Shown piece after piece: positions 1 to 23,223 of a stretch of 28,839 nucleotides of DNA. Numbering within the stretch: position 1 is the first letter of the stretch; each line of letters begins with the position of its first letter. A model generated the notes under the pieces. The model saw nothing but the letters and a program-made list of their open reading frames with translations. It had not been told where the DNA came from and did no database searches. The translations under genes and the position numbers were made by a program. Source of the stretch: an uncultured archaeon (GTDB lineage Archaea; Asgardarchaeota; Heimdallarchaeia; Heimdallarchaeales; Heimdallarchaeaceae); the NCBI GenBank assembly GCA_964534625.1, contig CAZHRF010000040.1, positions 1 to 28,839 of the forward strand. The letters run 5' to 3'.

Positions 1-126
1 AGATTTATGAACCTCCCACCCAAAGATATTGTACTCAAAAGTGTAACCGATCTTAGTTGAGTTAACAAAATCCTAATTAGACCCAAAAATGTTTTATGTC
101 AGTAGTCGATTCTATTTTTGATTCAT

Positions 127-1542
127 GTGAGACACGTAAAAATTGTTGCAACAATTGGGCCTAGCTCCCAAAACGAGAAGACTTTAGAAAAAATGATTAA
201 TGCCGGTATGAATGTGGCTAGACTTAATTTCTCTCATGGTTCTCATCCAGAACATGAGAAAGTATTCGAAATCATTCGTTCTATTGATGAGACAATTGGT
301 ATAGCCATTGACATAACAGGCCCTAAAATTCGAATAGGCGAATTAGATCAACCCTACAATTTACAAATTGGTGAAAAAGTCACGCTTACAACTCGCGATA
401 TTATTGGAAATAAAGAGACCATGCCTATTAATTATCCCCAGCTTACTTCTGAGATTGGAGCACATGAGCCTATTTTTGTCAATGATGGTTTAGTCAAATT
501 ACAAACTATAGAGGTGACGGAAGAGGAATTACTTTGTGAAGTTTTAGATGGAGGGATAATATCATCAAGGAAAGGTGTTAACGTCCCTACAGCTAATATT
601 TCCTTACATGTCCCAACTGATAAAGATAAAAATGATTTAGAAAAAGCGTGTGAGTTAGAAGCAGATTTTATTTTTGTCTCATTTGTTCGTAAAGTGAATG
701 ATCTAGAAAAAATACAAGAAATAATTCATTCATGTACAGATAGTCGCATACCCCTCATCTCTAAAATCGAACACAGAGATGCTGTTTCCAATGTTCGTGA
801 AATTCTTTCCCATTGTGATGGTTTAATGGTAGCACGAGGTGATCTTGGTATAGAAATTGGTCCTGCAAGAGTCCCTGTTTTACAAAAACAACTTATAGAC
901 TTGGGTAGAAAAAAAGGTAAACCAGTTATTGTTGCTACTCAAATGCTTGAATCAATGGTAGAAGAGCCCATCCCAACTCGTGCGGAAGCTAGTGATGTTG
1001 CACACGCTGTGTTTGACTGTGCTGATGCTTTAATGCTTTCCGCTGAAACAGCAACGGGTATTCATCCAGCGTATGTTATAAAAGTTATGGACGATATAAT
1101 ACGGGAAGCTGAAACAAGCAAACACGTACAATTCGAACAACAATTGGGCACAGATGATCTAATTGGAGAAGTAATAGGCCAAGCTGCAGTACGTATAGGG
1201 AAACAAATTAAAACAAAAGCAATTGTTGCTTTAACACAAACGGGTTATTCTGCTCGAATGGTTTCAAAAAACAGAATTTCATTGCCTATTATAGCAGTAA
1301 CTCCCGATGAACAAACTCTGAGAAGACTTCAATTGCATTGGGGAATTAAGCCTGTTCTTCATTCATATTATACAGAATATGATCAACTTGTTTATGGAGC
1401 TATTGAAACTCTTCATAAAAAGAAATTTGTTAACCAATCAGATAATATTGTGCTTGTAGCTGGTTCCATGTTAGGCATACCTGGGAAAACCAATACTATT
1501 CAGATATTAAATATAGGTGAGACAATAGCTGGTCGTCATTAA
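127..1542 (+). CDS. pyk: Pyruvate kinase
   Basis: Motifs KIVATIGP, ARLNFSHG, DITGPKIR, SKIE, DGLMVARGDLG, ATQMLESM, PTRAE, MLSAETA, plus a C-terminal alpha/beta domain (TQTGYSAR..., LHWGIKP). The ORF track starts at TTG 118; GTG at 127 (MRHVKIVATIGP) fits typical PK N-termini better. Confidence 0.97.
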   Translation: MRHVKIVATIGPSSQNEKTLEKMINAGMNVARLNFSHGSHPEHEKVFEIIRSIDETIGIAIDITGPKIRIGELDQPYNLQIGEKVTLTTRDIIGNKETMPINYPQLTSEIGAHEPIFVNDGLVKLQTIEVTEEELLCEVLDGGIISSRKGVNVPTANISLHVPTDKDKNDLEKACELEADFIFVSFVRKVNDLEKIQEIIHSCTDSRIPLISKIEHRDAVSNVREILSHCDGLMVARGDLGIEIGPARVPVLQKQLIDLGRKKGKPVIVATQMLESMVEEPIPTRAEASDVAHAVFDCADALMLSAETATGIHPAYVIKVMDDIIREAETSKHVQFEQQLGTDDLIGEVIGQAAVRIGKQIKTKAIVALTQTGYSARMVSKNRISLPIIAVTPDEQTLRRLQLHWGIKPVLHSYYTEYDQLVYGAIETLHKKKFVNQSDNIVLVAGSMLGIPGKTNTIQILNIGETIAGRH

Positions 1543-1557
1543 ATTTTCTTTCTTTTT
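1543..1557 (+). terminator. Putative archaeal oligo-T terminator after pyk
   Basis: T-rich run (attttctttcttttt) directly after the pyk stop codon. Confidence 0.35.
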
Positions 1558-1605
1558 GCGATAAGCATAAAAATGAGTAGTATTATTTTTTAATGTGAAT
1601 AAAAA

Positions 1606-2943
1606 ATGATTCGATTCCTTAAAAACATATTTGGAAAAAAGACGGAAAAAGACGAAAAAGATATTCCTAAAATTTTTAATGCTTTATATGAATTCAATCA
1701 TGATAACATAATTGAAAAAAGCAAAGAAAAAGAAAAACCATTAATAGGAAATGCAAAATCTAATACTTTATTCTTAGAAACAGAGAAAAATAAGTTATCC
1801 GCCAAATTAGCTTTTGTTTTCATCGGTTCTACAGGTGTAAATTATTATACAGCGTTTAAAAAGCGTTTTCCTAAAGATGAGTTTAAAGGGTTAATTTTGA
1901 CTGAAACTGAAAGTCTGAACAGTTTAGATACAAAACTAACCAATTTAGGATATCCCAACATTAATTACAAGGAAGACACATTTCTCAAAGGATATGATTG
2001 GTACGATTCTAACAATGATAAACTATCTGATATCCTTAATAAAATTTTCAAAGAGGTTGAAACAACTTTTATAATTTCCAGTAATAGCCGTTTTGAAATA
2101 GGTCTTACTCAGAAAATTATTGATTCTACACACGCTTTGGGGCCTCAACCCATTCTAGTTTTGCATTTACCACATATTGAAGAAGAAAAACAGAAACAAA
2201 TCAATGCCTTAGCTTTTATGTATCAATTATTACAAGCTGAAGTTAAAAAAACAGCTCCTTTCTTTCTCTTTGATGAAATGCAACTATTAAAATCGCATCC
2301 AAAAAGAGACACAAACAATCTTATACCCCTATTGTATCCTCGTATTAGCAACTGCCTTATTGACTTGTGTTTATCCATACAGTTGTCTTCTAAACTATAC
2401 AGAACCGAAGAGGATAATTTTCATGCTCTATTCAAAAACACAAAAGGTCCTGCTAAATTATTATCATTTGATATTTATGATCAATCAACCGAACTATCTT
2501 ATCTCCTTAAAAAAACACCCTTGGCTTACAGTTATACTTCGGAAGACATAGGAACACGAGGAATGATTATTGTTCAACCATCTTTATCAGGATTAAACAC
2601 TAAACAATATCTAGTTTTCCGGGAATATTTTGCTAATAAAGATGTTCAAATTAATATCATTAAAGAGAGACAGGTAGGTAGTTTAATAAGAGGATTAGTT
2701 CTCTTTTCTAGGTTACCTAAACATATCCTTAACAGATATACAATTTTAGAACAGTTCAGGATGCAAGTTTTAGATGAAGAAGAGGCTACAAAAGAATCAT
2801 TTGATCTTATAGAATTATCTCGCTTGTGGGAATATAAAAACTATCATCTTAAAGAAATTGAAATCACAAAAGATGAATCATTAAAAGAAAAAGTTGGAGA
2901 TAAAATAATAGAAGAGAGAGATGAGAAAAAAAACAATGCATAA
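1606..2943 (+). CDS. Divergent tubulin/FtsZ/CetZ-superfamily-like protein with degenerate GTP-binding motifs
   Basis: Colinear resemblance to the FtsZ/tubulin fold: KLAFVFIGSTGVNYYTAF (T1 loop); LILTETESL; ETTFIISSNSRFEIGLTQKII (position of GGGTGTG); ILVLHLPHIEEEKQKQINALAFMYQL; FFLFDEMQLL; YRTEEDNFHALF (T7 position); GTRGMIIVQ (C-terminal domain). The ORF itself is solid; the fold call is an inference. Confidence 0.6.
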   Translation: MIRFLKNIFGKKTEKDEKDIPKIFNALYEFNHDNIIEKSKEKEKPLIGNAKSNTLFLETEKNKLSAKLAFVFIGSTGVNYYTAFKKRFPKDEFKGLILTETESLNSLDTKLTNLGYPNINYKEDTFLKGYDWYDSNNDKLSDILNKIFKEVETTFIISSNSRFEIGLTQKIIDSTHALGPQPILVLHLPHIEEEKQKQINALAFMYQLLQAEVKKTAPFFLFDEMQLLKSHPKRDTNNLIPLLYPRISNCLIDLCLSIQLSSKLYRTEEDNFHALFKNTKGPAKLLSFDIYDQSTELSYLLKKTPLAYSYTSEDIGTRGMIIVQPSLSGLNTKQYLVFREYFANKDVQINIIKERQVGSLIRGLVLFSRLPKHILNRYTILEQFRMQVLDEEEATKESFDLIELSRLWEYKNYHLKEIEITKDESLKEKVGDKIIEERDEKKNNA

Positions 2944-3026
2944 TAATGCTTTTCATCTTTTTTTTCCATATTAATGCTTATTTTTATCTGCAAAAACTCC
3001 TACACATAATTTTTCACCAACTAGAT

Positions 3027-3048
3027 AGACGTAAAGGCGTCTTTTTTT
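3027..3048 (+). terminator. Short hairpin plus T-tract, possible terminator
   Basis: AGACG(T)-AAAG-(G)CGTCT followed by a run of Ts, in the 2944-3188 intergenic region. Confidence 0.3.
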
Positions 3049-3106
3049 CATTTATAATAGTCATCCGATTTTTTTTGTTGAAATAAAAAATGAGAAAGAA
3101 CTGACC

Positions 3107-3126
3107 AAAACAATTATAATTGTTTT
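3107..3126. promoter_or_regulatory. Perfect 20-bp palindrome, candidate transcription-factor operator
   Basis: AAAACAATTA|TAATTGTTTT, about 10 bp upstream of a TATA-like TTATATA (3137-3143) preceding the 3189 gene. Confidence 0.45.
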
Positions 3127-3188
3127 TTCCACAGCCTTATATAGACTAGTCTCACCAATTCTGATGATGTCGTTACATTTATAAAAAG

Positions 3189-6100
3189 ATGGTGAGAAAA
3201 AAAACTAAAGATTCACTATTAAGAGGAAATGCTATGGAAAAGCGATTACGTATTTTAATGGGTGTTGTCATTTTACTTATTACCGCAGGTAGTGCAATAA
3301 CTATAAGTTATATTCTACCTACACAGACTTATATATTAGTCGACCAAATCAACGCGGATTTAATTCATAATGCACAAATACGCCCGGAAGATGATTTTAG
3401 AGCTTATAATGGACCTGATGATACAAACTATTCGGATTGGATGTATACAGGTGTTAAAAATGAAGACTCAAACTTTACAGTAAAAACCAGATTTGAGTTT
3501 TATAACGTTAGTGACCGATATGGTTGGTTATATCTTAGTTCTTCACCAGCGTATCAATTCCCTCCAGGGCGGCTTATTTTTGATGTGGTTATCAATAAAA
3601 CTGTGATCGATTACAATACTGAACATGATTATGTTGTATATGGCCAACAAAAACAATACATCTACAATAAGGACGAATCAACAGCTGGGTTTAAAGATAG
3701 TTATGTCTTGAATTATAACTATTTATGGCCATATTATATCGAAAAATTTGGTAATGGAACAGAATATGGTTTTCAAGCATATATAGCGTCCTATTTATTA
3801 CATAATGAGTTACAAGAATTACAAGATCGTCTTGCACTCAATGAAGAAGAAATTGCACACTTAGCTTTAAACCGTAATTATGCACAAGGGCAATTTGACA
3901 TTCAAGATTCAGTTTATATTCCACATAATTGGATAGATGTCAGACCAGCTTATATTGATCTAGGTTTTGATGCAGCTACAAGTTATCAAATTTTATATAA
4001 TGCTACCTACGAAGGTAAAAACTTAGGTATATTAAATGGAGATCCTGGTGCAACAAAATTTTTCTTAGATTTAGTTAAAGGGTTATATTATGACCAAACT
4101 TTCTTATCTATCAGTCCTGAGCAATTACTAGCGGATGTTTATAACATTGATACACCCGCAGAAATTCAATATGCTAAATCTTTAGCTGCCTATCTCGAGT
4201 TCTTGCTTGTTGAACCAGCATTAGATTGGTTGTGGGACAATCAAATTTCTTATGTGGCTAGGAGAACAACATGGGAATGGCTTTTTGGCGTCAACGATGT
4301 TTTACTAGGTAACAACAAGTTTCCAATTATTAGAAATATTACTGCAACGACATTTGATACTGACTCAGACATGTACTATATGGAAAAAATGGGATTACAT
4401 AATGTCAGTGAGGTTAGCCAAATAAGGGGTATTGCAAACATTCCAGGATACACTGAAGCCCATACACTTGGGCTAGACTATGATCCCGACACAGGTCTTG
4501 CTTATGCTGTTGAAGGTAAACGAGGATTAAAAATTTCAAACACAACCCATCCACTATTCTTGGCAATTGGACAGTATAAACCTTCAGGTGAGGATTTCAG
4601 AGATGTTGCTGTTGAAAAAACTACAGCAGGCAACACATGGGTCTATACGGTTAGTAATGTAGGGTTAAAAATTATTAATGCAGATGATCCCGAAAATATG
4701 GAACTAGCTACTGTTTTTAATAATTTTGGCAATGTAGACATGCAAAAACTAGAACTATACAATGATAATATATTTATTGCAAATGGTAAATATGGAATCG
4801 TTCGAGTTGGGTATTCAGGTCAAGAATTACAAACTGGTGTCGCTCAAGATAAATATACTGGTACTAATGTCAAAGCTTTAACAATTGGAACGTATACACC
4901 TAATATTATTTTTACAGCGGAAGGTACTGACGGTATTGGTGTATATACTAGCACATTTAGTGATATAACTTCGGTTTTAAATTACACTACAAATCTTAAT
5001 GATGTATACGAGATTAAGGCTTATGGTGATTACGTATATGTTTTAGATAGTGTTAGAGGGCTAGTTATTTTTGAATACGATGATTCAGCTCAGACTTTAA
5101 CCGAGCAATCATCTTACATTACAGGTACTGAACCATATCAATCAATCTATGTTAAGGATGCAAGTACGCTTTATCTGGCTCATGGCACTGAAGGATTTGA
5201 AGTTATAAGCATATCAGATCCCATAAATCCAACCCAAGAATCTACATATGATATTAATGCAAATGATGCAATAGTTTCAGATGTTTATGTTCATGGAGAT
5301 AAGGTATTTGTAGCTGAAACAACCAATGGTTTAATTCGTCTTAATATCACTGCAAGTGGATTTGAGTTTGCTAGTGAAAAACCATTTGAACGTGATCAAC
5401 TCCATACATATGTTGAATGTTGGAATGGTGAGGGATTGGAAGGACGCGATGCCCAAGTACAGCTTAATAATTGGCTATTTTTAGATGAAACGGATTACCA
5501 GAAGATGCCAAATACAGAAACCTATAACAACTATATTATTCGACCTAAAACAACTAGAGGTCTGAGAAATCAATGGTTTGAAGATTTCTTACGCCCAATA
5601 GTATATTCATCAACTGATACAGCTCTTAAATTTGACCTTCCCATGCTCGTATATCTAGCAGAACAACAACAACCAGTAGTAAACTTTAGAAGGTCAGATC
5701 TATATCACCAGCCAGAGGGGTCTACCATCCATAAGAATGTAAGCTTCATTTATTCGGGAAATTGGAACAACTTATATAATGATAAATACGCTTTTCAACC
5801 AGGTAATATATATATAACACATTCCTTACCTGGGTCGCCTCAACATGAAGCACATGAACAACAAATGACTGTAGAGCCAACAACAGGTATGGTGGTTACC
5901 AGAAAAGATAGAATGCAGTATAATACACATTCAACATTCTTTATTGAACACTATCAATATCTTAATGAAACAAGATTGGAAGAATACGTAGATGAATTGA
6001 TTGCTGATAATCCCAACTTAGGATCAGGCGATAAATCAAACTTAATTGCCAACTTAAAAGAGTCCTTTTTATACCGAACATGGCATACTTCAAATCCAGG

Positions 6101-6323
6101 CCTTACTGGTTCAATGGGAACTTTGTTCTGGAAGGAAGAAGTATATGAAGCTACAGAAAAATGGGGAGATGATACAAAAGAACAATTCATCAATCGTATT
6201 AATACAGCAGATAGCTATAGAACATATGGTGCCTTTATTGCAATGGCACTCCTCACAGCTGGTTTTATAGTAACCTCTGTTGTTTTAGATAAAACTAAAC
6301 CTAAATCTCCAGAAGAGAAATAA
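3189..6323 (+). CDS. CD36/scavenger-receptor-class-B-like membrane protein with an inserted LVIVD-type beta-propeller
   Basis: N-terminal TM (ILMGVVILLITAGSAITISYIL) and C-terminal TM (YGAFIAMALLTAGFIVTSVVL) flank a large ectodomain. CD36-like blocks in the correct order: YSDW...TRFEFYNVSD; KQYIYNKDES...DSYVLNYN; RRTTWEWLFGVND; GLHNVSEVSQI; EGRDA; WFEDFLRPI; HEQQMTVEPTTGMVVTRKDRMQYN; LFWKEE. LVIVD-like repeats (LAYAVEGKRGLKI, IFIANGKYGIVRV, YVYVLDSVRGLVIF, LYLAHGTEGFEVISISDP, VFVAETTNGLIRL) lie at ~4450-5360. Confidence 0.75.
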   Translation: MVRKKTKDSLLRGNAMEKRLRILMGVVILLITAGSAITISYILPTQTYILVDQINADLIHNAQIRPEDDFRAYNGPDDTNYSDWMYTGVKNEDSNFTVKTRFEFYNVSDRYGWLYLSSSPAYQFPPGRLIFDVVINKTVIDYNTEHDYVVYGQQKQYIYNKDESTAGFKDSYVLNYNYLWPYYIEKFGNGTEYGFQAYIASYLLHNELQELQDRLALNEEEIAHLALNRNYAQGQFDIQDSVYIPHNWIDVRPAYIDLGFDAATSYQILYNATYEGKNLGILNGDPGATKFFLDLVKGLYYDQTFLSISPEQLLADVYNIDTPAEIQYAKSLAAYLEFLLVEPALDWLWDNQISYVARRTTWEWLFGVNDVLLGNNKFPIIRNITATTFDTDSDMYYMEKMGLHNVSEVSQIRGIANIPGYTEAHTLGLDYDPDTGLAYAVEGKRGLKISNTTHPLFLAIGQYKPSGEDFRDVAVEKTTAGNTWVYTVSNVGLKIINADDPENMELATVFNNFGNVDMQKLELYNDNIFIANGKYGIVRVGYSGQELQTGVAQDKYTGTNVKALTIGTYTPNIIFTAEGTDGIGVYTSTFSDITSVLNYTTNLNDVYEIKAYGDYVYVLDSVRGLVIFEYDDSAQTLTEQSSYITGTEPYQSIYVKDASTLYLAHGTEGFEVISISDPINPTQESTYDINANDAIVSDVYVHGDKVFVAETTNGLIRLNITASGFEFASEKPFERDQLHTYVECWNGEGLEGRDAQVQLNNWLFLDETDYQKMPNTETYNNYIIRPKTTRGLRNQWFEDFLRPIVYSSTDTALKFDLPMLVYLAEQQQPVVNFRRSDLYHQPEGSTIHKNVSFIYSGNWNNLYNDKYAFQPGNIYITHSLPGSPQHEAHEQQMTVEPTTGMVVTRKDRMQYNTHSTFFIEHYQYLNETRLEEYVDELIADNPNLGSGDKSNLIANLKESFLYRTWHTSNPGLTGSMGTLFWKEEVYEATEKWGDDTKEQFINRINTADSYRTYGAFIAMALLTAGFIVTSVVLDKTKPKSPEEK

Positions 6324-6358
6324 TTTTTCCTTCATTTTTTAATCTTTTTTCTTTTTTT
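6324..6358 (+). terminator. Oligo-T terminator region after the CD36-like gene
   Basis: Several T-tracts immediately downstream of the stop codon. Confidence 0.45.
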
Positions 6359-6664
6359 CGTTTTTCCATAGACTAAAGAACGATTTATAATTTGCATCGA
6401 GTGTTTTTAAAGTCATTTGGAGAACTTTGGAATACCCCATTTGTATGGGGGGTATTTTCTCTTGATTTCTGGTAATTCATCTTGCTGTTTGGTATATGTA
6501 ATGTATTTTCGTTCTTTTTTGGGTTTTTCTTTTTGTTCTTTCCAATTGTCGATCCGATCCGAAAGTGCGAAGATATACATCAAACGGCATTTTTCCGATA
6601 CATCTCATAGTACATCCAATTGCTCTTGGATGGGATACATTCGAATTTTTTGACTTACTTGCAC
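6358..6664 (-). pseudogene. tnpB: Truncated tnpB (IS200/IS605 family OrfB) pseudogene, N-terminal HTH region only
   Basis: Minus-strand reading from GTG 6664: MQVSQKIRMYPIQEQLDVL*DVSEKCRLMYIFALSDRIDNWKEQKEKPKKERKYITYTKQQDELPEIKRKYPPYKW, then a 1-nt frameshift at ~6435 into YSKVLQMTLKTLDANYKSFFSLWKN. This matches the TnpB N-terminal pattern (K.R.YP..EQ...L....CR..YN.AL; S.VLQ..L..LD..YK.FF). In-frame TGA at 6607-6605. No RuvC or Zn-finger region follows. Confidence 0.85.
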
Positions 6665-6759
6665 TTTTGATCACTTAATATATTAATAGTGTTTTATATC
6701 TTTAAATATATGTGCGAAATTCATTCCCCCTAAAGAATGGGAACTTCTTTCGCAATCAG
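6358..6759 (-). mobile_element. IS200/IS605-family (IS1341-like, tnpB-only) element remnant with left-end hairpin
   Basis: Upstream of the tnpB start is a subterminal hairpin, GCGAAA(6714-6719)...TTCCC/GGGAA...TTTCGC(6748-6753), resembling archaeal IS605-group ends. It is bordered on the minus strand by TTTAA (6764-6760), a plausible target/TAM pentamer. Confidence 0.7.
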
Positions 6760-6826
6760 TTAAATATACTAGTAATAACTAATTATGCTCACCGAATTAC
6801 TTATCAGTAGCACATTAGTGTTATAG

Positions 6827-6890
6827 TTTATATAGTATAGACTATACATAGTATCCATAGAACGTGTGTAAGAATATATATTTAAGAGGT
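6827..6890 (+). promoter_or_regulatory. Putative top6B promoter: TATA-like TTTATATA, adjacent inverted repeat and Shine-Dalgarno GAGGT
   Basis: TTTATATA 6827-6834; GTATAG-A-CTATAC 6835-6847; GAGGT 6886-6890, six nt before GTG 6897. Confidence 0.4.
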
Positions 6891-6896
6891 AGTTGC

Positions 6897-9800
6897 GTGT
6901 CTAATTCCGAAACAAAAACAAAAAAAATGAGTGCAGCAGCATTTTTTAACGATAACCGAGCCATTGCTGGATTTGGCAATTCTATGCGAGCTGTTTTCAC
7001 TAGCATAAGAGAATTAGTTGAAAATGGTTTGGATGCTGCTGAAAACAGAGGTATTAATCCTAAAATTACAGTTGAATTGCGAAGACTCTCTAGTGACGAA
7101 ATTAAGGAATTGCTTGACATTAGAGAGCATCAAAAACTCGAAAAACATATAGACTTTCTTCAACTTACTTGTAGAGACAATGGGATTGGAGTTTCTGGTA
7201 ATCAAATTGCTGATTTGTTTGGTCGTGTCCTTACTGGTACAAAATATGGGGTAATTCAAACTAGGGGGAGATTTGGTTTAGGAGCTAAAATGTGTCTCCT
7301 TTATTCCATGTCTTCAGTAGACTTACCTGCAAAAATAACCAGTCGTTATTTCATGAATGATATAACACATGAAGTTCATTTAATGATTAACTTAGAGAAA
7401 AATGAACCCATTATAATGGAACAAAAAGAGTATTTGGAAGGTCATCCTAAGTATTTAAATGAACCTGGTACTGAAATTCAGATTTCTTTCACCGGTGCAT
7501 GGAATCTTGCCAAGAATAGTATCAAAGAATATTTCAGACAATTAGCTATTATTACTCCTTATGCTTCATTTGAAATAAAACTCCCTAGTGATGATGATAA
7601 TCAAGAATTTGATGTTTTGGAATATGATTATGTTGTTGAAGATATGCCCCCTCATCCTAAAGTAGTGAAAATACATCCTTACGGATGCGACATTACTCAA
7701 TTTAAAGCTGAACTGTCAGGCACTGATGCAAAAACGCTTACAGAGTTTCTTTCAACACATTTTATGGGAGTAAATGAACGAGTTGCGGAAGGATTCTTTC
7801 ATTTGCTTGAAATTGACCCAAATAAAAACCCCAATGATTTATCTACTAATGAGATCAGGCGTATTGTTCATGAGGGGTTCGTTAAAGCCTATCAAGAAGC
7901 AAAAGATGTAAAAAGAAAAAGAGATAGAATTTTTCAATTTGATGCTCCAAAAGGTGATGCACTTTCTCCATTAGGGGCAAACAGACTTAAGAAGGGATTA
8001 GAAAAAGAATTAGAACCTGTTTTTGTTGAAGCTATCTCTAGACCACCCAAGGCATATTCAGGACACCCATTTATTGTTGAAGCAGCAGTAGGATATGGAG
8101 GTGGAGTGAATAAGGCAGCTCAATCTCGCAGTAGTTATTCATCAGATAACAAAATTATCTACAGATATGCCAATCGCATACCCTTAATTTTCGGGGCAGG
8201 AAATGACGTAATTACAAAAGTTGTTAACTCTATTAAGTGGAATGAATATGGACTAACACGGCAGTCTGATCCGTTGTCTATAGCAGTATCAGTTGTTAGT
8301 ACAAAAATTCCTTTTCCTGAAACCAGCAAAGAATATATTTCCTCTACACCCGAATTAGAAGAAGAAATTCGATTAGCCCTTCAACAGTTAGGAAGAAGAT
8401 TAAAGACCTACTTAGGAAGAGCAAAGCGCAAACGCAGAGAAAATGTTAGACTTTCTCGTTTTGTCAAATCTGCACCAGTCGTAATTGAAAATCTTGTACG
8501 GATCCTTGATGATGAGAAAATAACTTTTACAGACTTAAAACAAGAAATAATGATTACTTCTGCAGCATTAGCACATGGAACACAAAAAAAAGTGAAACTG
8601 TTTAAACCTCTTGGTACAGATATCTTTCAAGCAAATATTTGGTGTTCCGAGGATATACAAGAAAAACTCCATAATAATAGCATAAGTTCCATAGGCCGTT
8701 TTCTTTATACAGACGGATCTGTTTTATCAAAGTTGATAGATGTTTCTCAGGTAGATATCTCTGATATCAAACGTAGAACGATCTACGAATTTGATAAAGC
8801 AGAAATGTCCCCACCATTATTTAATAGATATTTAATACCCAGACAAATAGAAAAACGCTTTAAAAAGAAAAAATCTGATAAATCAAAATCTCTCAAAGAA
8901 TCGCTATATAAACGATGGATTCAAAATAGTTACCATTATTTAGCAACATCAGAAGTGAAGCTAGGAAGAGTCAATGGTTTATTGGAAAGATTGCTGGAAA
9001 CAAAAAAGAATGAGTTGCTCGAGAGACACATAGAAAATAAAAGTCAACACATTGAGCAGCATAAAGACAAGCCAATTCAAAAAGGAACCTTGGATAATTA
9101 TCTTAAACGAGAAGAAAAAGATGAGATGAAAGAAAAAACTAAAATACCAGATGATATTGAATCGTTAGATAAATTATCAGTAAAACACATTTTTCCTTCA
9201 TTTGAATGGTTGAAAGAAAATACAGAAAGCATACAACCAAATCAGACCCTTGAAGAATTTATTTTTGATATAAAACGCCCAAATTCCACAAGATATTATG
9301 AAGATTTAACAAAATCAATTATAGATCATATTGTTAAGGTTTTTACACAATTATCGGAAAAATTTCCTGAATTTGAAAAAATCATTGTAACTAAAATGTC
9401 TCCTGATTGGATGGATGGATATACTAAGAATGCTTTTCATAGAAGAAATATTGAGACTGTCTCTGATTTTATCAATTTTCCTTTAGAAGATCTTATTGAA
9501 ATTAGAGAGATGGAGAGGAGCCTCTATGCAGATTATATTTCTTATTTAGGTAATCAACAATCAATTTCTTTAACAGAATTAGGTATTTCTGATAAAGAAG
9601 AGGAATTATCAAAAGAGATAAAGATGGTTTATTCGTTTCTTAAGAAGAACAACATTCATACCCTTGCCAAATTTCTTTCTCTTCCTATTATTTCCGTTTA
9701 TGAGAAGAGATTTGACAAACTTGCTTTATTTCTATTGGATGAATCAAAGGTTCGTATTTTGGACTATATTAAGAAAAAAGAAGAAAGATATGATTTATCT

Positions 9801-12800
9801 CATATTAAAATGATTCCTAGAGACTTAGAAATAGCTTTAAGGAAGAACCAAATTTTTACTACAACAGAATTTTTATCCACATCCATCACAACCCTTAGGG
9901 ATGATCTTAATTTTACTAAAAAAGAAGTAATTAGAATAAAAAATCTCATAGGTACAGAATTACCTAACTGGATAGAAAACAAGACATTACTAAGTAAACT
10001 TGGTATTAATTCGCTTGAAGAAATTTTTTACAGTTCGCCTGAAAAATATGATTTAGAAGCAGAAGATAAAAAAGATTATTTGAAGAATTTAAAAGTTCTA
10101 AGGACTCCAATTGTATTTGCACTTCCTGAATTGCGACCCGAAGCATATTTTCTAAAGAAAGTGGGTATAAACTGTGTTGGGCGTTTTCTAATCTGGCCTA
10201 ATATCGACCTAGCAGAGATATTAGAGACAAGTGTTGAAAATATCCTAAAATTGAAAGAAAAAATAGATCCAACCACATTTCAGCAAAATATCGATAATTT
10301 TGGCAAAGACTTATCGATTATTAAACATCTTTATCCACGTTTGTACAAATATTTTGAAGGACATAACATTTCTCTTCAAGAACTATTTTATCTGTATCCC
10401 ACAGAAAAACTGCCTTTAGATGAAAATAGTTGGGAAAGGATATCTCATTTAAACTACCTAGCCCAAAAAGATATTTTAGAGATTGTAAATCATATAAACA
10501 TTAGTTCTAGAAAAAAATCACAACTAAGACAAGCACTGCTCCATCTCAAGGGAAGAAATTACCTCACTATAAGATCATTGTTAGATACCCATCCAGATGT
10601 TTTAAGGAAAGAACTACCCAGAAAATCTATCAGAAAGCCAGTCTTGGAGATCTACTCGAAACTAAAAAGTCCAAAAGCATCAAAAGAAGAGTTTACAAAT
10701 GATATCCTCCTAGTAGGAGAATATGATGATTTCCTTCAATCTTTTGCACTTCCTACATTAAGAATTAATGGTTTAGATATTCACGATTGTGATAACCTTA
10801 TGCTTAATGGTATCGTTTCCATTCAACAAATGTTCGATTATAACACAGTCAAATTGTCTGATATCACAGGTCGTACACAAAAAGAGATACAAGATATATT
10901 AAGTGAAATTCAAATAACTAAAAAATGGGCACCATTCTTTACTCGAAAAGGTCGTACAGGATATGAATCGCTTATATTTTTTGATTTTGAAGAATCTGAA
11001 CGTTTTTCATCTGATGAAATTGAATCGCTCATTAATTGTGGCTATTCTTCTGTAGATGAGTTATTTTATTTAACTAACAAGTTAACATTTTCGTCTCCGG
11101 TGGTAAAATGGGAAGTTATTCATAAATTCAAGCAATTACTTAGATCTCCCCTTACACTTGTCAGTTGGGAAGAAAAAATAGTTAAAAAAATCACGAATGA
11201 AGAGACAGGGGAAGAGGAGGAAGTGGAAGATACCAAACATATTACGCTTTCTACCCCTCAACTGAATACACTAAGAGAAGAAAATATAACAAGAATAATT
11301 GACTTGTTGTTCACAAAGTCCGATAGAATAGCTAAAATACTTAATATCGGTGTAGAAAAAGCTTCAAAATTGCAAAGAAATGTTAGAATATCTGATACGG
11401 GTATAAATCTAGCTGATTTTAGTATATTCAAACCAGAAATCATTAAACAACTTGAAAACATAAACATCGTAACAATTGAGGATTTATATTTTTCAACAGC
11501 ACAAGATAAGTGGAAACTGGATAATATTCCTTGGAGCATAATAGAGACGTTTAAGAAGATACTGAATCTTCCTCTTATCAACCTTAAAGATATGCTAGAT
11601 GCTGAGATAATTGATTCTTTAACTAAAGCCAATATATCTACCTTACTCGGATTTCTTTTATCATCTCCAAAACATCTAATGCAAAAAACGGGGATCCCTG
11701 ACGAAAGATTTGAGAATATCCGAAGTGGTTTAGATCTCTCCGAACTTTACAAATATTTCTCTCTACCAATCTATTATTTACCTGAAGTTAGTTTTGATCT
11801 GACTGAAGAGTTACATGAAAATGAAATAACACATATCATCGATTTTATAGACAAAAATTCTTCCGTATTAGGAAGGATAATTAACAGTGGTGAAAAAAGG
11901 GTTGAAATTGGCGACCTTAAAGATTCATTAACAGTAAACAAGATTTTTGGTAGATATGAAGAATTGGGCATTTTTGCTTTTGAAACAAAACTTTTCGATA
12001 AGAACGAGCAACGCAAACTTAGTCGTGACTCTATTTTCATGTTCGAAGGGCTTCAAACAATACAAGAAATCTATTATTTAGTAGAAAAAAGTTATTATCA
12101 ACTGAACCTTGACTTATGGAATAAGATATCTGCTATTAAAAACATTATGGGACTTCCTCTCCGAATGTTTTCAGAGATATCAGATTATTCTATGGAGATT
12201 TTGAAGAATAATAATATTACCTTAGTATATCAATTATTATTTATTCCGGATGGGGATATAACTGAAGATGAATTGTTGTATGATAATGTATCAACCTACT
12301 CTTCTACTTTAATCGATTTTAGGTCATTTCATTATTTTGGCCATATACCTGCAAGGGTTTATAATGCTGAGTTTCTTAAGGATTATGTTGAAAATTTTGA
12401 AGACGTTGCGTTGCTAGATGCCATAACGTCTAAGAAACTGATTGATCATTTTGCGAATAAAGAGAGACAATTTATCATAGAAAAAGTTAATATTAATCTC
12501 ATACGTTCTTTGTTAGAATTACCTCTACAAGTTAGTCCTTTCATAGAACAAATTAGCACAGAGATGAAACCCGAATTATCTACAACAAAGATAGGTGAAC
12601 TATTCACAGATCAATACGATGAGTTTTCAGCAATTGCAAAGATACGAGAACAACTAAAAGAGTACAATGCATTCAATGTCTTAATCCGAGATATTTCATT
12701 TCCTGTCGTTAATCTGGGATTGGAAGGAGACGCAGCTCTAAAACTGAGTAAAGCATCAATTAATACACTCATCGAATTTTATTCTACACCCATAAAAACA

Positions 12801-15800
12801 TTAGCGGATATAGCGGATGTCTCCCAAAAATATATTAGAGAAACAAAAGAACAGATGATTTATTCTGAACTTGTTTCTATACACGAAGAAAGATCTCATC
12901 CTATAAACGAAAGCTCAATAATATCTCAAGAACAAATTAACAAATTAAATGAAATAGGGATTAACTCTATTGAAAGATTCTATTTCTCTTCTCAACTAAT
13001 TGGGGTTGCAGACATTTTATCCTTGGAAGATTATAAATTAGTTAAAGAAATATTATCTGGTTCTTTAAGATTCATTAGTTTTCTTTCTTTTGAGGAATAT
13101 CAGCGATTAGAAGAACACAATATGAATTCTATTATTGACCTATCATTGTTAACAAAACAAAAGCTATTCACTATTACAAATAATATGATTTACCAAGAGT
13201 TTCATATTTTAGATCTAATATCTTTTGATGAGATAGCAATAAAGAGAGAGAAAACAGCCATTCCTCTTACTGCTTGTCCATCCATAAAAGAAGATTATTT
13301 AGAAAAAATAACTAATATAGGTATTCACTCCATTCAAGATTTTATTTCACGAATGGATGAAATAAGAGAATCGCATCCAAATCTAGTTAACCTTAATATA
13401 TTTAAAGAAGTGGAATTATTCAATTCGTCTATTGCTTTTCTCCCACTTCCGATTAAAGATAAGAATAAACTCCTATATTCAGGTTTAGGTGATATTCTCA
13501 CATTTGTTACAGAAGATCCTTCAACTATCAGTTTGATTCTTGACTCGTCTGAGAAACAAATAAAGAAAATAAAGAATAAAATCTCTGTAGATACCCTCAA
13601 GAAACAAATAGAGAATAATGGAATCATACTTGATAATTTTAACCTTCTTACTCCCAACAAAACAAGATCATTATTACGTAGCGGAAAAAAGACAGTACAA
13701 GATTTATATGCTGCTTATTATCAAGCAGGTGTTGTTACGGATGTTTCAGAAACATATCTAGAGAGCTTCATAAAAGATTGCGAGAGTTCTATTTATTGTA
13801 TAGATGAACTCGAATTTACAGTTAAAACGCTTCTTGCTAAAAATGATATTCTACGAGTAATTGATCTGATAAATAGTGATATATCTAATATACTTAAAGA
13901 GTGTATTCCAGAAAGTCACAAAACACTTATGGAAGCAAAACAAGGGACAATCACTTTAAATAAAGGCAACAATATCACTATTGATGAGGAATATATAAAC
14001 CAACTTAAGACTTTCAAACTAGAGCTGGAAAATTTGACAGTAGAATCAATTTATGCTTTTATTCCTCAGTATCTCAAAGAATACTCCGAAACAATTCAGA
14101 TAGAAAAAATAAAGGAGATAACATTACTTTCAAAACTAATTAGTACTTTATCCAAATCGATTTTAGCCATAGACGAGTTTTCATTGAAAACTAAAACTGA
14201 GCTTTGGGCATTAGGTATAAGGAATATTATTGAAATTTTTGTACTTCCACATGAAAAATTACTGAATATTGAATTTTCGGCTCGAAAAGAAGTGAGAGAA
14301 TTTGTTAATACAATCTCTATAAACAAATTGCTATCAATTATACTTCCTAGCAATTTATCACACACTAATGCTGAAATTCAAAATAAACTGCAATCTTATA
14401 ATATCAATAACCATCTAGAATTGTTTAACTTCATTCCCCACACACTTCTATATTTAGAAGAGGAATTATACTCCTTTATTAAACATGTTAGTGCACATCT
14501 TTTATATCCTATCATCTGGGTAAAGCCCATTTTAGAACTGGAACATCATATGATCAAAAGTATAGTGGAGAATGGTGGGGGGAATATCCTTTCTGCTTTG
14601 AGCTTACTTTCTTTTGGTGATAACTGGGATAATACCCTATATGAAAAGAAAAAAGAGCAACTTATCAAAAGTATATATAGCACTCTAGATGAAGTCAAAC
14701 CTCCGAAATGGACCATTAAAATCGCAGATACTTGTTTATTAGATAATTACAATTTAGGAAATAAAAAAACCAAAATTAATGAATTTTACATTTCTGAATT
14801 GTTTACTTTTAGTAGTCTTTTCCAACAAGATATAAGTTTAGCAGAAGAAGTACAAAAAATAGTTACGAATTTAGAGACAATACCTATTTCTTTTGTTGAT
14901 GATCTAACAAAAGAGCAATGTAGAACACTTTTGGAACTTAATTTCTCAAATTTGTCATTGTTTCTCTTTTATCCTGTTCCGTTGTTATCCAAAATTTTAG
15001 ATGTTTCAGAAGAGAAAATTTCTCAAATTAAAAAGAATATCAACTTAAAAGACTTGAATAGTAGAAATAAAAAATTTGGAATAGATATTGCATTACTCGA
15101 TTCTATTTCAGAAACTACAAAAAACAAACTAAAAACTACAGGGTTTGAATCTATTTATCAACTCATTAGTGTAGATTTAAATACAGTGGATTTATCTAAA
15201 GAAGAAAGAGAGAAAGTAGAAAAATCATTCTCTATTCTTTATACACCCATGATACTAGCAGCCAAAAGGTTCAATATAAAAGATAAGGAAATAAAAAGAT
15301 TACATGCCCAATCCCTTTATACCTATTATGATCTTTTAAATCTTCCAATACTTGAATGGAAAAAACTATTAAAACCTTTGTTTGATTCAGCAGATAAAGA
15401 CAACAAACAATTCATCAAAGAACTAGAATTAGCATCTAAAGATGGCATGGACATAATAAAACTTGATCTTCCAAAAAGGTCAACAGAACAATTACAAAAT
15501 ATAGGATTGGATACAATTGAACACTTCTGTTATGCTCCTGTTGAATATATAGCTGATAGAACATATTTACAAGAAGACGCAGTTACAGAGTTAAAATCAA
15601 AACTTTTCAAAAGTTTGGCATTTTTGCAAGAATTATCACCCCAGACTATAATATATGCATATAACCAGAAAATTTATACAGTTATAGATCTTGTGAATCA
15701 TTATCACGATCTACCAGAAAAAATACAAAAGGAAGTAGAACCAGCTATAGAATCGATCCGTGATGTTAATATATTATGTTTTAAAGAAGATAAAAAAGAT

Positions 15801-18800
15801 GTTGAACAACGTTTAATTAGTGCAGGATATCAATCATATAAAGACGTACTCTGTGATCCTCAAATACTACAAAAGAAAGAAGTGTATTCAAGCATAGCAC
15901 CCTATTTACTTGCAAATATAAGATTTCTAAACATAGATAAAAAGACTGAATCAAAATTAAGAGAAAATGGGTTCCATACTATAGCTGATCTCATTATTTT
16001 ATCACCTTCATTTGTGGGTAAAAATGCAAGAATTAAGATAGCTGATATCACCAAACTAGTCTCAACAATAAATATTGCAGATATTCAAAAGAATATCGAA
16101 CAAGAACAAAATAAACATTTTACTGATTTAGAATTTGTCTCTAACAAAAATCAAGAAACACTCAAATCCATGGGGATATATTCATACGAGGATTTACGCA
16201 ATATTAGAGATTACCCTTGGTTATATAATACTAAAGAATTAGAAAAAGTTACTGTGCAAATAGAAAAAATTCTAAAAGTATCTATTCTAAATTGTCCTCA
16301 AATCTACGCTCTGTCTATTGTTGATATTGAACAAATGTTTTATTCAAATAATGTTTACAAACTAAAAGATCTATTAATTAGTACAACTTCAGTTAACAGA
16401 GATGAATTGGATGATTTCATTCAGAATATCGATGTTTTTCAAGAAAAGAAAGAAGAAAAATATATTCAGATGAACATCTTCCTTCAGGATATTTCCCCTT
16501 CTGATTTATTTACCAAAGATGTAGACATTACAGGAGAATATCTAATAGATCTCATTTCAACAATTTTTGAGAACACAGCTACACTTTCAGAAAAAGGAAA
16601 GTTTCTTCATAAAATACTAAAAACTCCTATAACAATAATTACCAAATTAGATCAACACCAAATTTCTAAACTGAAAGAAAATAATATACAAGTAATAGCT
16701 GATTTATTTGTAAAACCAGCAGAATATATTCAAAATATTCTTAGTAAGAAACTTTCTAAACATATTGAAACCATGCTTCCAAAACTAGATATGACAACTC
16801 TACAAAAATATTTCGAGAAAAGAGTGAAAACCACGGATCTTGTTTTCTTATCCGAAAAGGTTTTAGAAGAAGTAACAAATGAGTTTGATATCATTGATCA
16901 ATTATATTTAGCAATTAATAGTGATAAATCCCCATTTAATAAGTCTGTTACTACAAATATTATGAAAAAATTGGATGAATCCCTTCTATTAGTTAAGATT
17001 CCTAAATTGACTATAGATAATTGGATCAAGCTACATGAAACTATTCCTACTGTAAAAGACTTTCTAATGTCCCATCCTCATCGACTGGCAGATGTATGCG
17101 GACTTGATGAACAAGCAATTCTTTCTCTACAAAAAAGTATTACTGATGGTCAATTTATCCGTGCTCCCAGAATAAGTAAAAATAAAATATTCACAGGTAC
17201 TTGTGTATTAAGGTTAAAAGAAGAAGGGATCATTGATTATCCATCTTTATTCTCTTTTGCATCCAACAATTCTAATTTAACCATTAAACTCAAACATCAA
17301 ATCAATTTTGTTACAGGATATGATTTAAATGAATTTGATAGATATAATCTATCTCTTACTTTGAAAGATCTTATTTTCTTATCCTATCACATTGATGAAT
17401 TAACAGATACGGACAAAAAATTAAATGAACTCAAGGAAATGATTGATGTTTTTCTATCAGATGGTAAAGGTTTAGAGGAAATCTTTCCCGAGTTAGATGA
17501 GAAGCAGTTAGAAGAAATTGGATATTATACAATCGAATTTTTATTAATACTTCATGAAAATAATACAGAGATATTTGAGGAGATACTTAATTTATTCGAT
17601 GATAACATTTCAACTCTCATATTAAATTTAATAGACGATTTGTCCCGTCATCCTATTCTTCTTAAAGGTCCTGGATGGGATAACATCAAACTGTTTGAAG
17701 ATCGCCCTTATTCCTCTATTAAAGAGCTCTTTTTCATTCCATCTACTGAATTAAGAGAATTAGATAATTCTTTATATCTTAATTTTAGGAAAATAAATCC
17801 TTCTTTCTTGGAAGAATTAAAAGATGAGCTTGTTACTATTTCTTTACTGTCTTTTGATGAACAAACAATATCGCATTTAGAACGCTATGAGCTTAAATTT
17901 ATCGAGGAAGCACTGATTTATAATATTCAATCAAATTCTCAAACAAGCAAATTATGGCAATATTCGGAAGAGATCCGACGAATCATGTATATGAATCCCT
18001 TACAACTACCTAAAGTTGTTCAAAATGAAATTATTGCGAACGAGGTTGATGAAAAGCATCTTAAGACCATCTATGATTTCATTGTATTTTGCAAGCAAAA
18101 TGATAATAAACAAATACAGAAACAGTTTTCTTCAATATTACAAGACCTTAATCCAGAAAGTATCAATAAATTTGAAGAACAAGAGAGAGAGAGGTTTAAT
18201 AGTTTCATTAAAGATGGTAATCTTATCAATCAGTTGAAAGAAAATAATATTGACAGCATTGGCCTTCTTACACCCTTGATTAACAGCAAACTACCAGATA
18301 CATTAACTGATGAAATTAGAAATCTTATTTCTACACTTACTGCACCTGTGGGATTAATCGTAACTCATTCTACAATCGAAAGTAAATTAAGTAAGCAAGG
18401 AGTAGCGCAAGTTTTTGACTTCACTCAACCTCCAAATAATGATAAATTCTTAGACGTCTATCTTACAGATACTCAAAAACAACGCGTTCTTTCAAAACTG
18501 GAGAATTTAACATATCCTAAACTCTGGGAAGAATTAGAAGACAGAAGTACCCGCTTGGAAAAATGTCTTTTCCTTAAAAAGGAATATTTAGATGCACTTA
18601 GAAGAGTAGGTTATACTCATATCTACCACTTGAATTTACCAGCAGGATTAATATCTACTTACACCAATCTTAATAAATCTGAAGTTCAAGAAATTACAGA
18701 TATACTTTCCTCTCCCATATATTTGCTTAATGACTTATTTATTGGACATCCTCAAGCAATTATGAAATTATATAAACAAGGAATGCTAACGCTAAAAGAC

Positions 18801-19331: not shown

Positions 19332-20743
19332 TGGTTCAACAAGATTTTCTTATCAGAAATTCAACTACTTTACCTGCAGATGAAAAAACCCAAGCATTTG
19401 ATCGCGATATTTATGTTGCTGAAATCTATGAATGGGTAGAACACGCATATGATTTATCAAGAGACAAATTTGTTCTATTCTTACGTAGTGGAAAAAAATG
19501 GTTTTTATTGAATTCAAGAAAGAAGCTCACATCTTATGACCTTAAGAGAGAACGTATGCGTATTGACATTCGGCGTAGTGTTTCATTAGATAAACTCAAA
19601 AAATTACAAAAAGAATTGCTCGAAACAAAAAAAGACGAATATAGTATGCCTTATGGAGTAACCAATGTAGATATGACTACTGCACTCGAAACTAATAGCC
19701 GTTTAGTGAAGGCTGCTTGGGACTTTTTGTACGGAGCAATGAATTATCCTCGTGATGTGAGTTTTAGAATCCCATCTAGAAGTGGATCCAATATCGGATT
19801 TGATGAAGAACAAGAGTTAGTCTTGATTGGCCGCCAAACAATAGATAGACAGTTCCGCAACCTTTCGTCAGTCAGCTCTGTCGAACAAATGACAATTGCC
19901 ATGCGCTTAGTTCATGACCTTTTGTCAAGAGATATTCACTCAACTAAAAGAGATTTGTTTTATATGGATGTAAATGCTTTTGATAAACAGTCAGTTTCTG
20001 ATGCCTTAATTGAAGATTTAGGGGCGATGTTACAAGTTAGTCGTTCTTCACTGAATATTAGTGCATCATCTAAAGGTATTGTTGTGGGTCGCATCTCCTT
20101 TGAGGAGAAAGGTGATCTTATTGATTGTAGAAAAATGGGATCAGGAAAAGCCATAGCACCCAATATTGATGATATTAATAAACTGGAAAGTGACGCAGAA
20201 TTTTGTCTTGTTATTGAAAAAGATGCTATTTTTAATCGTTTGGCTGAAGACCACTTTTATGATTATGTCCCAAGTGTTTTAGTGACAGCCAAGGGACAAC
20301 CAGACATGGCGACCAGACAATTTCTAAAAAAGATAGATGATGAGTTGAATCTTCCTATCCTTGCGATAATGGACGCAGACCCGTATGGGTTTGAGATAAT
20401 GAGAGTATATAGTGTTGGAAGTAAATCGTTAAGCTTTGAATCTACTCATTTAGCTGTCCCAAATATTAAATGGTTGGGGTTGCTGCCTAGTGATTTGCTT
20501 CCAGAGAATGGTTTTGATATACCCAAATCAGCTTTAATTAAATTAACCCAAAAAGATATCAGAAGATCTAAATTGATGTTAGAAGAAGAATTTGTAAAAA
20601 GAAAACCAAAATGGGAAGAACAATTACAATTGCTAATAAATAGTGGATATAAAGCTGAAATACAAGCACTTAACGCAAGAGATCCTCAATTTATAACGAA
20701 TTTTTATCTGCCTGAAAAAATAGAAACAGGTGATTTCATATAA
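19331..20743 (+). CDS. top6A: DNA topoisomerase VI subunit A (Spo11 family) with an N-terminal extension
   Basis: STKRDLFY (catalytic Tyr codon 19961-19963); TOPRIM VIEKDAIF, TAKGQPD, DADPYG; KWLGLLPSDL; KAEIQAL. TAATG stop/start overlap with top6B and GGAGG SD at 19317-19321. Confidence 0.97.
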   Translation: MVQQDFLIRNSTTLPADEKTQAFDRDIYVAEIYEWVEHAYDLSRDKFVLFLRSGKKWFLLNSRKKLTSYDLKRERMRIDIRRSVSLDKLKKLQKELLETKKDEYSMPYGVTNVDMTTALETNSRLVKAAWDFLYGAMNYPRDVSFRIPSRSGSNIGFDEEQELVLIGRQTIDRQFRNLSSVSSVEQMTIAMRLVHDLLSRDIHSTKRDLFYMDVNAFDKQSVSDALIEDLGAMLQVSRSSLNISASSKGIVVGRISFEEKGDLIDCRKMGSGKAIAPNIDDINKLESDAEFCLVIEKDAIFNRLAEDHFYDYVPSVLVTAKGQPDMATRQFLKKIDDELNLPILAIMDADPYGFEIMRVYSVGSKSLSFESTHLAVPNIKWLGLLPSDLLPENGFDIPKSALIKLTQKDIRRSKLMLEEEFVKRKPKWEEQLQLLINSGYKAEIQALNARDPQFITNFYLPEKIETGDFI

Positions 20744-22615: not shown

Positions 22616-23199
22616 TGAGCCATAGAAAAAGACAATTCCTTAAGGTTATTTTAGCGGGGGAAGCAGGTGTTGGTAAAACAAGTCTGAGAAGGGCTTATCT
22701 TGGAGAAAGTTTCGTTAAACAACACCTATCCACAATAGGAGCTGATTTTTCAAGCATGAAAAAACACATAAATGATAAAATAGTAAATTTTCAAATTTGG
22801 GATTTAGCAGGGCAAGAATTCTTTGAAAATGTCCGCATGATGTATTATCGAGGAGCATTGGGTGCCTTATGTGTTTGGGATGTTACTGAAATTGAAAGTT
22901 TGGTAGATTTAGAGAGATGGATTAATGAATTAGAAAAGAATACTGGGCGAGGAATTGTTCCCTTCATAATTTTAGGCAATAAAATTGATCTTTTAGATGA
23001 TAATGAAAAGGAATTAATCAGAGAAAAAGCAAAAGATTTTGTTGATAAATACAACAAAAAATTCAATAATAAAGGTTTTAAGGTCGATTTTTATGAAACA
23101 TCAGCTAAAACAGGAGAAAATGTAGATAAAGCATTTGAAGATTTAGGTGAAAAAATTATTGAATATATAGAATTCAGAAGAAAAATGAGAAATAAATGA
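22615..23199 (+). CDS. Rab-like small GTPase (Ras superfamily)
   Basis: G1 GEAGVGKTS, G2 STIG, G3 WDLAGQE, G4 GNKID, G5 ETSAK; RabF-like IGADF, FQIW, YYRGA, CVWDVT. TAATG overlap with the upstream gene and a GGAGG SD. Confidence 0.95.
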   Translation: MSHRKRQFLKVILAGEAGVGKTSLRRAYLGESFVKQHLSTIGADFSSMKKHINDKIVNFQIWDLAGQEFFENVRMMYYRGALGALCVWDVTEIESLVDLERWINELEKNTGRGIVPFIILGNKIDLLDDNEKELIREKAKDFVDKYNKKFNNKGFKVDFYETSAKTGENVDKAFEDLGEKIIEYIEFRRKMRNK

Positions 23200-23223
23200 G
23201 GAGTAAAATACGGAGATAAAACA

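Follow-up and report, generated by a model that had tools for sequence, protein, structure and literature searches.

The stretch of DNA analysed here, hereafter the window (28,839 nucleotides; contig CAZHRF010000040.1 of assembly GCA_964534625.1, from an uncultured archaeon of the Heimdallarchaeaceae within the Asgardarchaeota), contains a gene for a protein, P0001, which we consider, with a probability of roughly 0.85, to be a two-pass surface protein whose ectodomain is a highly diverged relative of CD36 and LIMP-2 with a helical expansion at its apex and a complete LVIVD β-propeller. Class B scavenger receptors, a group that takes in CD36, SR-BI, LIMP-2 and the insect SNMPs, have central roles in lipid uptake, innate immunity and lysosome biology. 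A preliminary description of this DNA had placed the protein in the CD36/SR-B/LIMP-2 superfamily, and this assignment is supported by profile–profile matches, the predicted fold of the N half, membrane topology and phyletic pattern. What is new is a Pfam-invisible branch of CD36 proteins that is specific to the Heimdallarchaeaceae, has a propeller nested within it and is complementary in its distribution to the canonical form.

Hydropathy analysis identified two segments of membrane grade only, at residues ~22–44 and ~1013–1035, which enclose an ectodomain of ~970 residues. The tails outside them are short and basic (MEKRLR at the N terminus, counted from the probable start, and DKTKPKSPEEK at the C terminus), bearing out the hairpin topology proposed previously, with a transmembrane (TM) helix at each end. 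The motif blocks reported for the ectodomain are likewise present and in the order given, though two of the patterns were one residue off in spacing. They comprise FEFYNV at residue 102 (FEFYNVS, nt 3492–3512), KQYIYNKDESTAGFKDSYVLNYN at residues 155–177, RTTWEWLFGVND at residue 359 (nt 4263–4298), HEQQMTVEPTTGMVVTRKDRMQYN at residues 889–912, VEPTTG at residue 895 (nt 5871–5888, where the preliminary description had located it) and LFWKEE at residue 979 (nt 6123–6140). The blocks exceed what chance would give: in block alignments against bona fide Asgard CD36 proteins they coincide with the cognate motifs YYFWNLTNP, TRTVxEWLW, H-D-T-x-x-D-V-E/D-P-I-S/T-G ... KRLQVN and PLVWVEE. The barrel-core motifs RT-x-x-EW, VEP-x-TG, D-R-x-Q-Y-N and F-W-x-E are invariant across 30 family members.

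At the level of profiles, P0001 matches the Pfam CD36 family (PF01130) with E = 5e-5 in two colinear stretches, residues 130–180 on positions 81–132 of the hidden Markov model (HMM) and residues 883–915 on positions 361–393, the latter, in the C half, being the best. CD36 was also matched at E < 0.01 in 17 of 30 homologues (best E = 9.6e-7), and five homologues carry a precomputed PF01130 match. When compared by hhalign with an alignment of 29 bona fide canonical CD36 proteins, the N half matched with a probability of 92.9 (E = 3.6e-7, 134 columns) and the C half with a probability of 91.7 (E = 7.9e-7, 201 columns, reaching into the C-terminal TM helix), and the two matches are colinear. Block by block, the middle and C blocks matched their cognate blocks only (E = 5.7e-7 and 9e-7, respectively), the N block matched its cognate more weakly (E = 8e-4), and every non-cognate or reversed control gave E ≥ 0.038. 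Judged from its sequence, P0001 represents a very divergent branch of the CD36 superfamily.

A full-length AlphaFold2 (AF2) model (predicted local distance difference test, pLDDT, 69.5) contained a well-formed propeller at residues 426–725, and Foldseek listed only β-propellers for it. Because the insert swamped this list, the N half was folded and searched alone. All of the top 11 Foldseek rows for the resulting model (pLDDT 72.6) were LIMP-2 or CD36 (E = 2e-3 to 0.24, probability 0.77–1.0), the best unrelated row having a probability of 0.04. VIA-align gave a Z of 7.5 for LIMP-2 and 6.8 for CD36, with the next chain at 2.5, and in an exhaustive comparison with 48,161 representative PDB chains only LIMP-2 (Z 7.3; 186 residues, root-mean-square deviation 4.1) and CD36 (Z 6.8; 187 residues) reached Z ≥ 5, while rank 3 stood at 4.2 over 44 residues. 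Similarly, the 30 ESM Atlas models nearest to that of the N half included a single listed family, an archaeal 869-aa cluster with PF01130 in 94% of its members (template-modelling score 0.50, with 274 of the 382 model residues aligned), and a feature search of the Atlas with the C part placed an archaeal CD36 cluster at rank 6 (score 0.87), which is taken as a lead only. The structural comparison suggested in the preliminary description therefore came out in its favour for the N half, whose model matches LIMP-2 and CD36 above everything else; of the asymmetric β-barrel, it is the N-half fold that matches these proteins, the C half being modelled at low confidence.

Several results weigh against this identification. 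The Pfam score of P0001, 22.4 bits (19.7 bits in the genome scan), lies under the curated gathering cut-off of 26.5 bits for PF01130, so that of the anticipated profile match the colinear blocks stood, while the score fell short. Neither the family profiles nor P0001 itself recovered CD36 or LIMP-2 from the PDB chains by sequence, and the relationship is for this reason a remote one. In the block alignment, unrelated residues occupy the place of SKPHF, which is invariant in the 29 canonical proteins, and no GTDG-x-F-x-P, invariant or nearly so in those proteins, follows the propeller. Measured by the scale that the tool provides, the Z values of 7–7.5 are middling; the model of the C half is poor, with a pLDDT of 25–45 over residues 740–850, so that the closed barrel and any tunnel are putative; and the neighbours of the gene (pyruvate kinase, an unknown gene and topoisomerase VI) provide no functional hint. 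What gives the structural result weight is that the Z values are unique and that sequence evidence for the other half, obtained independently, agrees with them. A convergent or chance resemblance in an unrelated archaeal surface-protein family would accord with the sub-threshold Pfam score, with the PDB chains of CD36 missed by sequence profiles and with Foldseek E-values of only ~2e-3, yet it is highly improbable given that three colinear blocks match solely their cognates, that LIMP-2 and CD36 are the unique structural neighbours in the exhaustive search, that the topology is identical to that of CD36 and that the protein and the canonical CD36 of sister families have complementary distributions.

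The diverged CD36-type ectodomain carries its two additional regions at distinct positions. The helical region at residues ~180–350 lies between the N-terminal strands and RT-x-x-EW, which is the position where the CD36 apex has its three-helix bundle. The propeller is inserted after the strand ending in VSQIRGIANI, where the canonical equivalent continues into the GTDG-x-F-x-P loop; its site is the loop that runs from the counterpart of the LIMP-2 strand 'IVEWNGK' to the canonical GTDG-x-F-x-P position. The LVIVD family (PF08309) was matched with 28.2 bits (cut-off 20.2) in three stretches over residues 420–730 and in 27 of the 30 family members, and the propeller region is present in all 30 aligned homologues. 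In the model it contains 28 strands by DSSP and is apparently seven-bladed, and its Foldseek matches were WD40 and YCF48-type propellers (E = 4e-9 to 2.5e-7). A search for shorter, insert-free forms of the family returned fragments only, and in an exhaustive HMMER search of representatives LVIVD proteins swamped the list past the seven clusters of the family itself. A match of one family profile to the Vps4 MIT domain (E = 0.15) was taken as noise. With respect to possible modification and cross-linking sites, P0001 has 13 N-x-S/T sequons versus 9.5 expected and is not enriched, although five of them are kept in at least 28 of 30 members, one inside the F-x-F-x-N-V-S motif, and it contains a single cysteine (0–3 across the propeller-bearing family).

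Homologues of P0001 comprise 34 proteins with full-length open frames of ~1000 aa and 37–85% identity, and those with names come nearly all from metagenome-assembled genomes (MAGs) of Heimdallarchaeia, which agrees with an archaeal (Heimdallarchaeia) origin. For one propeller-family homologue, P0031 (926 aa, partial), the NCBI label is Thorarchaeota, whereas every other homologue with a name belongs to the Heimdallarchaeia; the label may reflect an error of binning or labelling or a rare transfer. Across 400 Asgard genomes, the propeller form was found as a single copy in 30 of the 31 genomes of the window's own genome family (f1, Heimdallarchaeaceae by source names) and was absent from the other 369, one weak match apart. 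This match, the only one outside the family in a scan with the C-part profile, is P0184 (819 aa), which is encoded by another Asgard genome and itself reaches 263 bits on PF01130 and, against LIMP-2, E = 1e-33. Bona fide PF01130 proteins were identified in 28 of the 400 genomes, and the earlier characterisation of CD36 as a eukaryotic family was accordingly not sustained. These canonical genes occur in f20 (20 of 135 genomes; Loki/Promethearchaeota by source names), in f2, f3 and f4, which are sister families within the window's own order, and in f6, of the same class, but in none of the 22 genomes of f5; the scan likewise found no canonical form in the Heimdallarchaeaceae. The two forms are thus complementary in distribution, since the Heimdallarchaeaceae have the propeller form without the canonical one, whereas their sister families carry the canonical form. 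The propeller-form gene belongs to the conserved single-copy core of one Heimdallarchaeial family, where it takes the place of the canonical gene, and this pattern is compatible both with the ancestral gene having diverged rapidly in the stem of the family and with its replacement by an old paralogue.

The canonical Asgard proteins P0222–P0226 (607–1367 aa) all have the hairpin topology together with a large helical-repeat insert at the apex position, and the scores of canonical proteins are 76–120 bits for LIMP-2 and as high as 263 bits for PF01130. Their ectodomains contain 0–5 cysteines, and cysteine content therefore separates animal from archaeal members but not P0001 from its family. In P0222, P0223, P0224 and P0226 (loci L025, L026, L027 and L029), N-x-S/T sequons are strongly enriched (12–37 versus 4–11 expected, the observed count being reached in 0 of 1000 shuffles), which suggests that Heimdall-order canonical ectodomains are heavily N-glycosylated; in the Loki-type P0184, sequons were not enriched. 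Some genomes of the Lokiarchaeia type encode two canonical CD36-like copies on one contig (G264:C33:2974-8298; G274:C4:21474-41032; P0196 and P0197), adjacent to each other in G264 and ~15 kb apart in G274.

The phylogenetic analysis was a FastTree tree that is unrooted and contains no sequence known to be eukaryotic. In it, the branch leading to the Heimdallarchaeaceae clade is very long and its point of attachment carries no information; because of this length, the tree does not decide between divergence and replacement by a paralogue. Four short CD36-family proteins encoded on Logan/JGI contigs of 2–3 kb, P0218–P0221 (478–754 aa), group with the Heimdall-order canonical proteins (support 0.78), and P0219 scores 118 bits against human CD36. 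As the attachment of the Heimdallarchaeaceae is uninformative and P0218–P0221 carry no taxonomic label, neither a donor nor a direction can be read from the tree, and the separation of vertical inheritance from transfer that the preliminary description had looked to a phylogeny for was not obtained. If P0218–P0221 were eukaryotic, their position would bear on the origin of the CD36 family.

An origin of the archaeal CD36-like genes, this branch included, by horizontal transfer from eukaryotes, and not from an ancestor predating them, would account for the patchy occurrence of the canonical form in Asgard genomes (28 of 400; for instance, 20 of 135 in f20 but none of the 22 in f5), and an unrooted tree without known eukaryotic sequences does not polarise the relationship. 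Such an origin is nevertheless quite unlikely, as the family occurs in at least six Asgard families and at least two classes (GTDB ranks), is deeply diverged within archaea and has a conserved archaeal gene context in the Heimdallarchaeaceae, and as archaeal ectodomains have 0–5 cysteines each, versus the two to three disulfides given for eukaryotic SR-Bs in PMC10715195. A broader scenario, in which the CD36/SR-B family predates eukaryotes, stems from a Heimdallarchaeial-type ancestor and was remodelled in the Heimdallarchaeaceae into a barrel with a nested propeller that couples the binding of partners or particles to the transfer of hydrophobic molecules across the envelope, is doubtful as a whole. 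If it were true, the propeller receptor would be a candidate for lipid exchange in Asgard syntrophy.

With regard to function, cholesterol, phospholipid or fatty acids travel through the barrel cavity of LIMP-2, SR-BI and CD36, and ligands bind at the apex, as described in PMC5712522, PMC6684646 and PMC10715195. By homology, P0001 may work as class B scavenger receptors do, a proposal to which we give slightly less than an even chance. Binding of a particle, the surface of a partner cell or a carrier would fall to the membrane-distal apex together with the propeller, and a hydrophobic ligand (a lipid, an isoprenoid or a quinone-like molecule) would pass along the barrel cavity between the source of the ligand and the archaeal membrane. 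A purely adhesive role is a serious rival to this proposal, possible if not probable: the CD36-derived scaffold would now be mainly an adhesin or surface binder, with propeller and apex binding glycans, the S-layer or partner cells, and the barrel would conduct no lipid. LVIVD propellers are typical of very large prokaryotic surface proteins, and the best propeller matches are to proteins of 1000–6000 aa; in addition, the canonical barrel motifs SKPHF and GTDG-x-F-x-P have been lost, which suggests a relaxed or changed constraint on the core, and the branch of the Heimdallarchaeaceae is very long. In contrast, many barrel-core positions are invariant across the 30 members, which speaks for a CD36 core that is still strongly constrained.

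The coordinates of the gene and its parts are given in Table 1. Translation probably begins at the ATG at 3234 (M16) and not at the first ATG of the frame, because this methionine is invariant in 30 homologues and is where they begin.

Table 1 Position of P0001 and of its predicted parts and upstream signals in the window
Feature	Coordinates	Strand	Basis and remarks
Longest open reading frame (ORF), P0001	3189..6323	+	Single open frame, 1044 codons including the stop
TATA-box-like TTTATAAA	3178..3185	+	Sequence reading; ~49 nt 5' of the probable start; putative promoter
GAGG	3223-3226	+	7 nt before ATG 3234
N-terminal TM helix, residues ~22-44	3252..3320	+	Hydropathy peak 2.3; helix in the model; follows the short basic cytoplasmic tail
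N half of CD36-like ectodomain, residues 45-425	3321..4463	+	AF2 model, Foldseek, VIA, hhalign
Expanded α-helical region, residues ~180-350	3726..4238	+	DSSP helices; flanking blocks align around the canonical apex insert
Inserted LVIVD-repeat β-propeller, residues 426-725	4464..5363	+	PF08309, Foldseek, DSSP
C half of CD36-like ectodomain, residues 726-1012	5364..6224	+	Pfam stretch, hhalign, block control
C-terminal TM helix, residues ~1013-1035	6225..6293	+	Hydropathy peak 2.4; aligns to the canonical CD36 C-terminal TM helix; followed by the short basic tail and the stop

Within the Heimdallarchaeaceae, the gene order pyruvate kinase, unknown 445-aa gene, CD36-like gene and Top6B is conserved in two other genera. 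The 445-aa gene, the CD36-like gene and the start of a giant ORF occur in a common order in the window (118–8700) and at loci L032 (genome G014, 7561–15427) and L033 (genome G011, 2917–9580); pyruvate kinase lies upstream of this order in G014 (60% identity), and over its first ~610 aa the giant ORF is 72–73% identical at both loci. No sign of positional orthology with the canonical genes in sister families was seen: in G041 and G055, none of the genes adjoining P0001 in the window lies near them. Further along the window, a 4155-aa ORF (6864–19331) stops where a Top6A/Spo11 gene begins (19331–20743; Pfam TP6A_N and Toprim), and the region 22615–25596 encodes a small GTPase of Ras/Rab type (PF00071, E = 2.6e-41) and, after it, a HEAT-repeat protein of 790 aa; the start of the GTPase gene overlaps the stop of the 599-aa ORF upstream of it.

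Searches of the literature on CD36 together with archaea (Asgard, Lokiarchaeota and Heimdallarchaeota), which included structure-based papers on Asgard eukaryotic signature proteins and the supplements of Eme et al. 2023, found no archaeal CD36-family protein, and for the canonical Asgard CD36-like proteins, too, no published description was found. A CD36 barrel with a nested propeller was not described in the literature searched, nor did one occur among the CD36 proteins retrieved. A 2023 survey of SR-B evolution is confined to Eukarya, traces the family to the last eukaryotic common ancestor and, in its available text, makes no mention of archaea (PMC10715195). The Heimdallarchaeaceae, however diverged their version, keep a conserved single-copy derivative of the CD36 fold that Pfam misses, which adds to the evidence that a receptor family supposed to be exclusive to eukaryotes is also present in the archaea closest to them. 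Together with the canonical Asgard forms, this makes the origin of the family testable, as vertical descent from Asgard archaea versus transfer, and likewise the question of how hydrophobic molecules are moved across the envelope of archaea whose membranes are built of ether lipids.

Compared with the vertebrate class B receptors used as references (LIMP-2/SCARB2, PDB 4F7B, 4Q4B, 4TW0 and 5UPH; CD36, 5LGD; SR-BI; Pfam PF01130), P0001 has the same hairpin of two terminal TM helices with short cytoplasmic tails and shares with them the colinear motifs F-x-F-x-N-[VL]-[ST], RT-x-x-E-[WL]-L, VEP-x-TG ... R-x-Q-x-N and [LV]-[FVI]-W-x-E-E. Its N-half fold aligns with that of vertebrate LIMP-2 at Z 7.3–7.5 over ~186 residues with 18–19% identity. 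In contrast to these receptors, P0001 is about twice as long, has a propeller within the barrel and a larger helical apex, lacks SKPHF and GTDG-x-F-x-P and scores under the Pfam cut-off. Animal SR-B ectodomains contain two to three disulfide bridges according to PMC10715195, whereas P0001, having a single cysteine, has no ectodomain disulfides.

The canonical Asgard CD36 proteins come from the same phylum as P0001 (P0222 and P0224–P0226 from the window's own order, P0223 from the same class only) and share with it the hairpin and a helical insert at the same apex position. They have no propeller, however, and the Heimdall-order members among them are enriched in sequons, while P0001 is not; the P0001 family is moreover restricted to one genome family, is single-copy and lies in a neighbourhood other than that of the canonical genes. 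Long-form SR-Bs of protists (Dictyostelium LmpA, Phytophthora and Tetrahymena) resemble P0001 in that a conserved barrel bears a lineage-specific helical expansion where the three-helix bundle lies, and in the available text of the survey that describes them (Genome Biol Evol 2023, PMC10715195) their expansions are helical and confined to the apex, whereas P0001 adds a propeller at a second site, downstream of the apex. Finally, P0001 resembles the LVIVD surface proteins (PF08309), as its residues 426–725 match that family over the cut-off and adopt a propeller fold in the model; in those proteins the propeller is a module of a long multi-domain protein, whereas in P0001 it is nested inside another domain.

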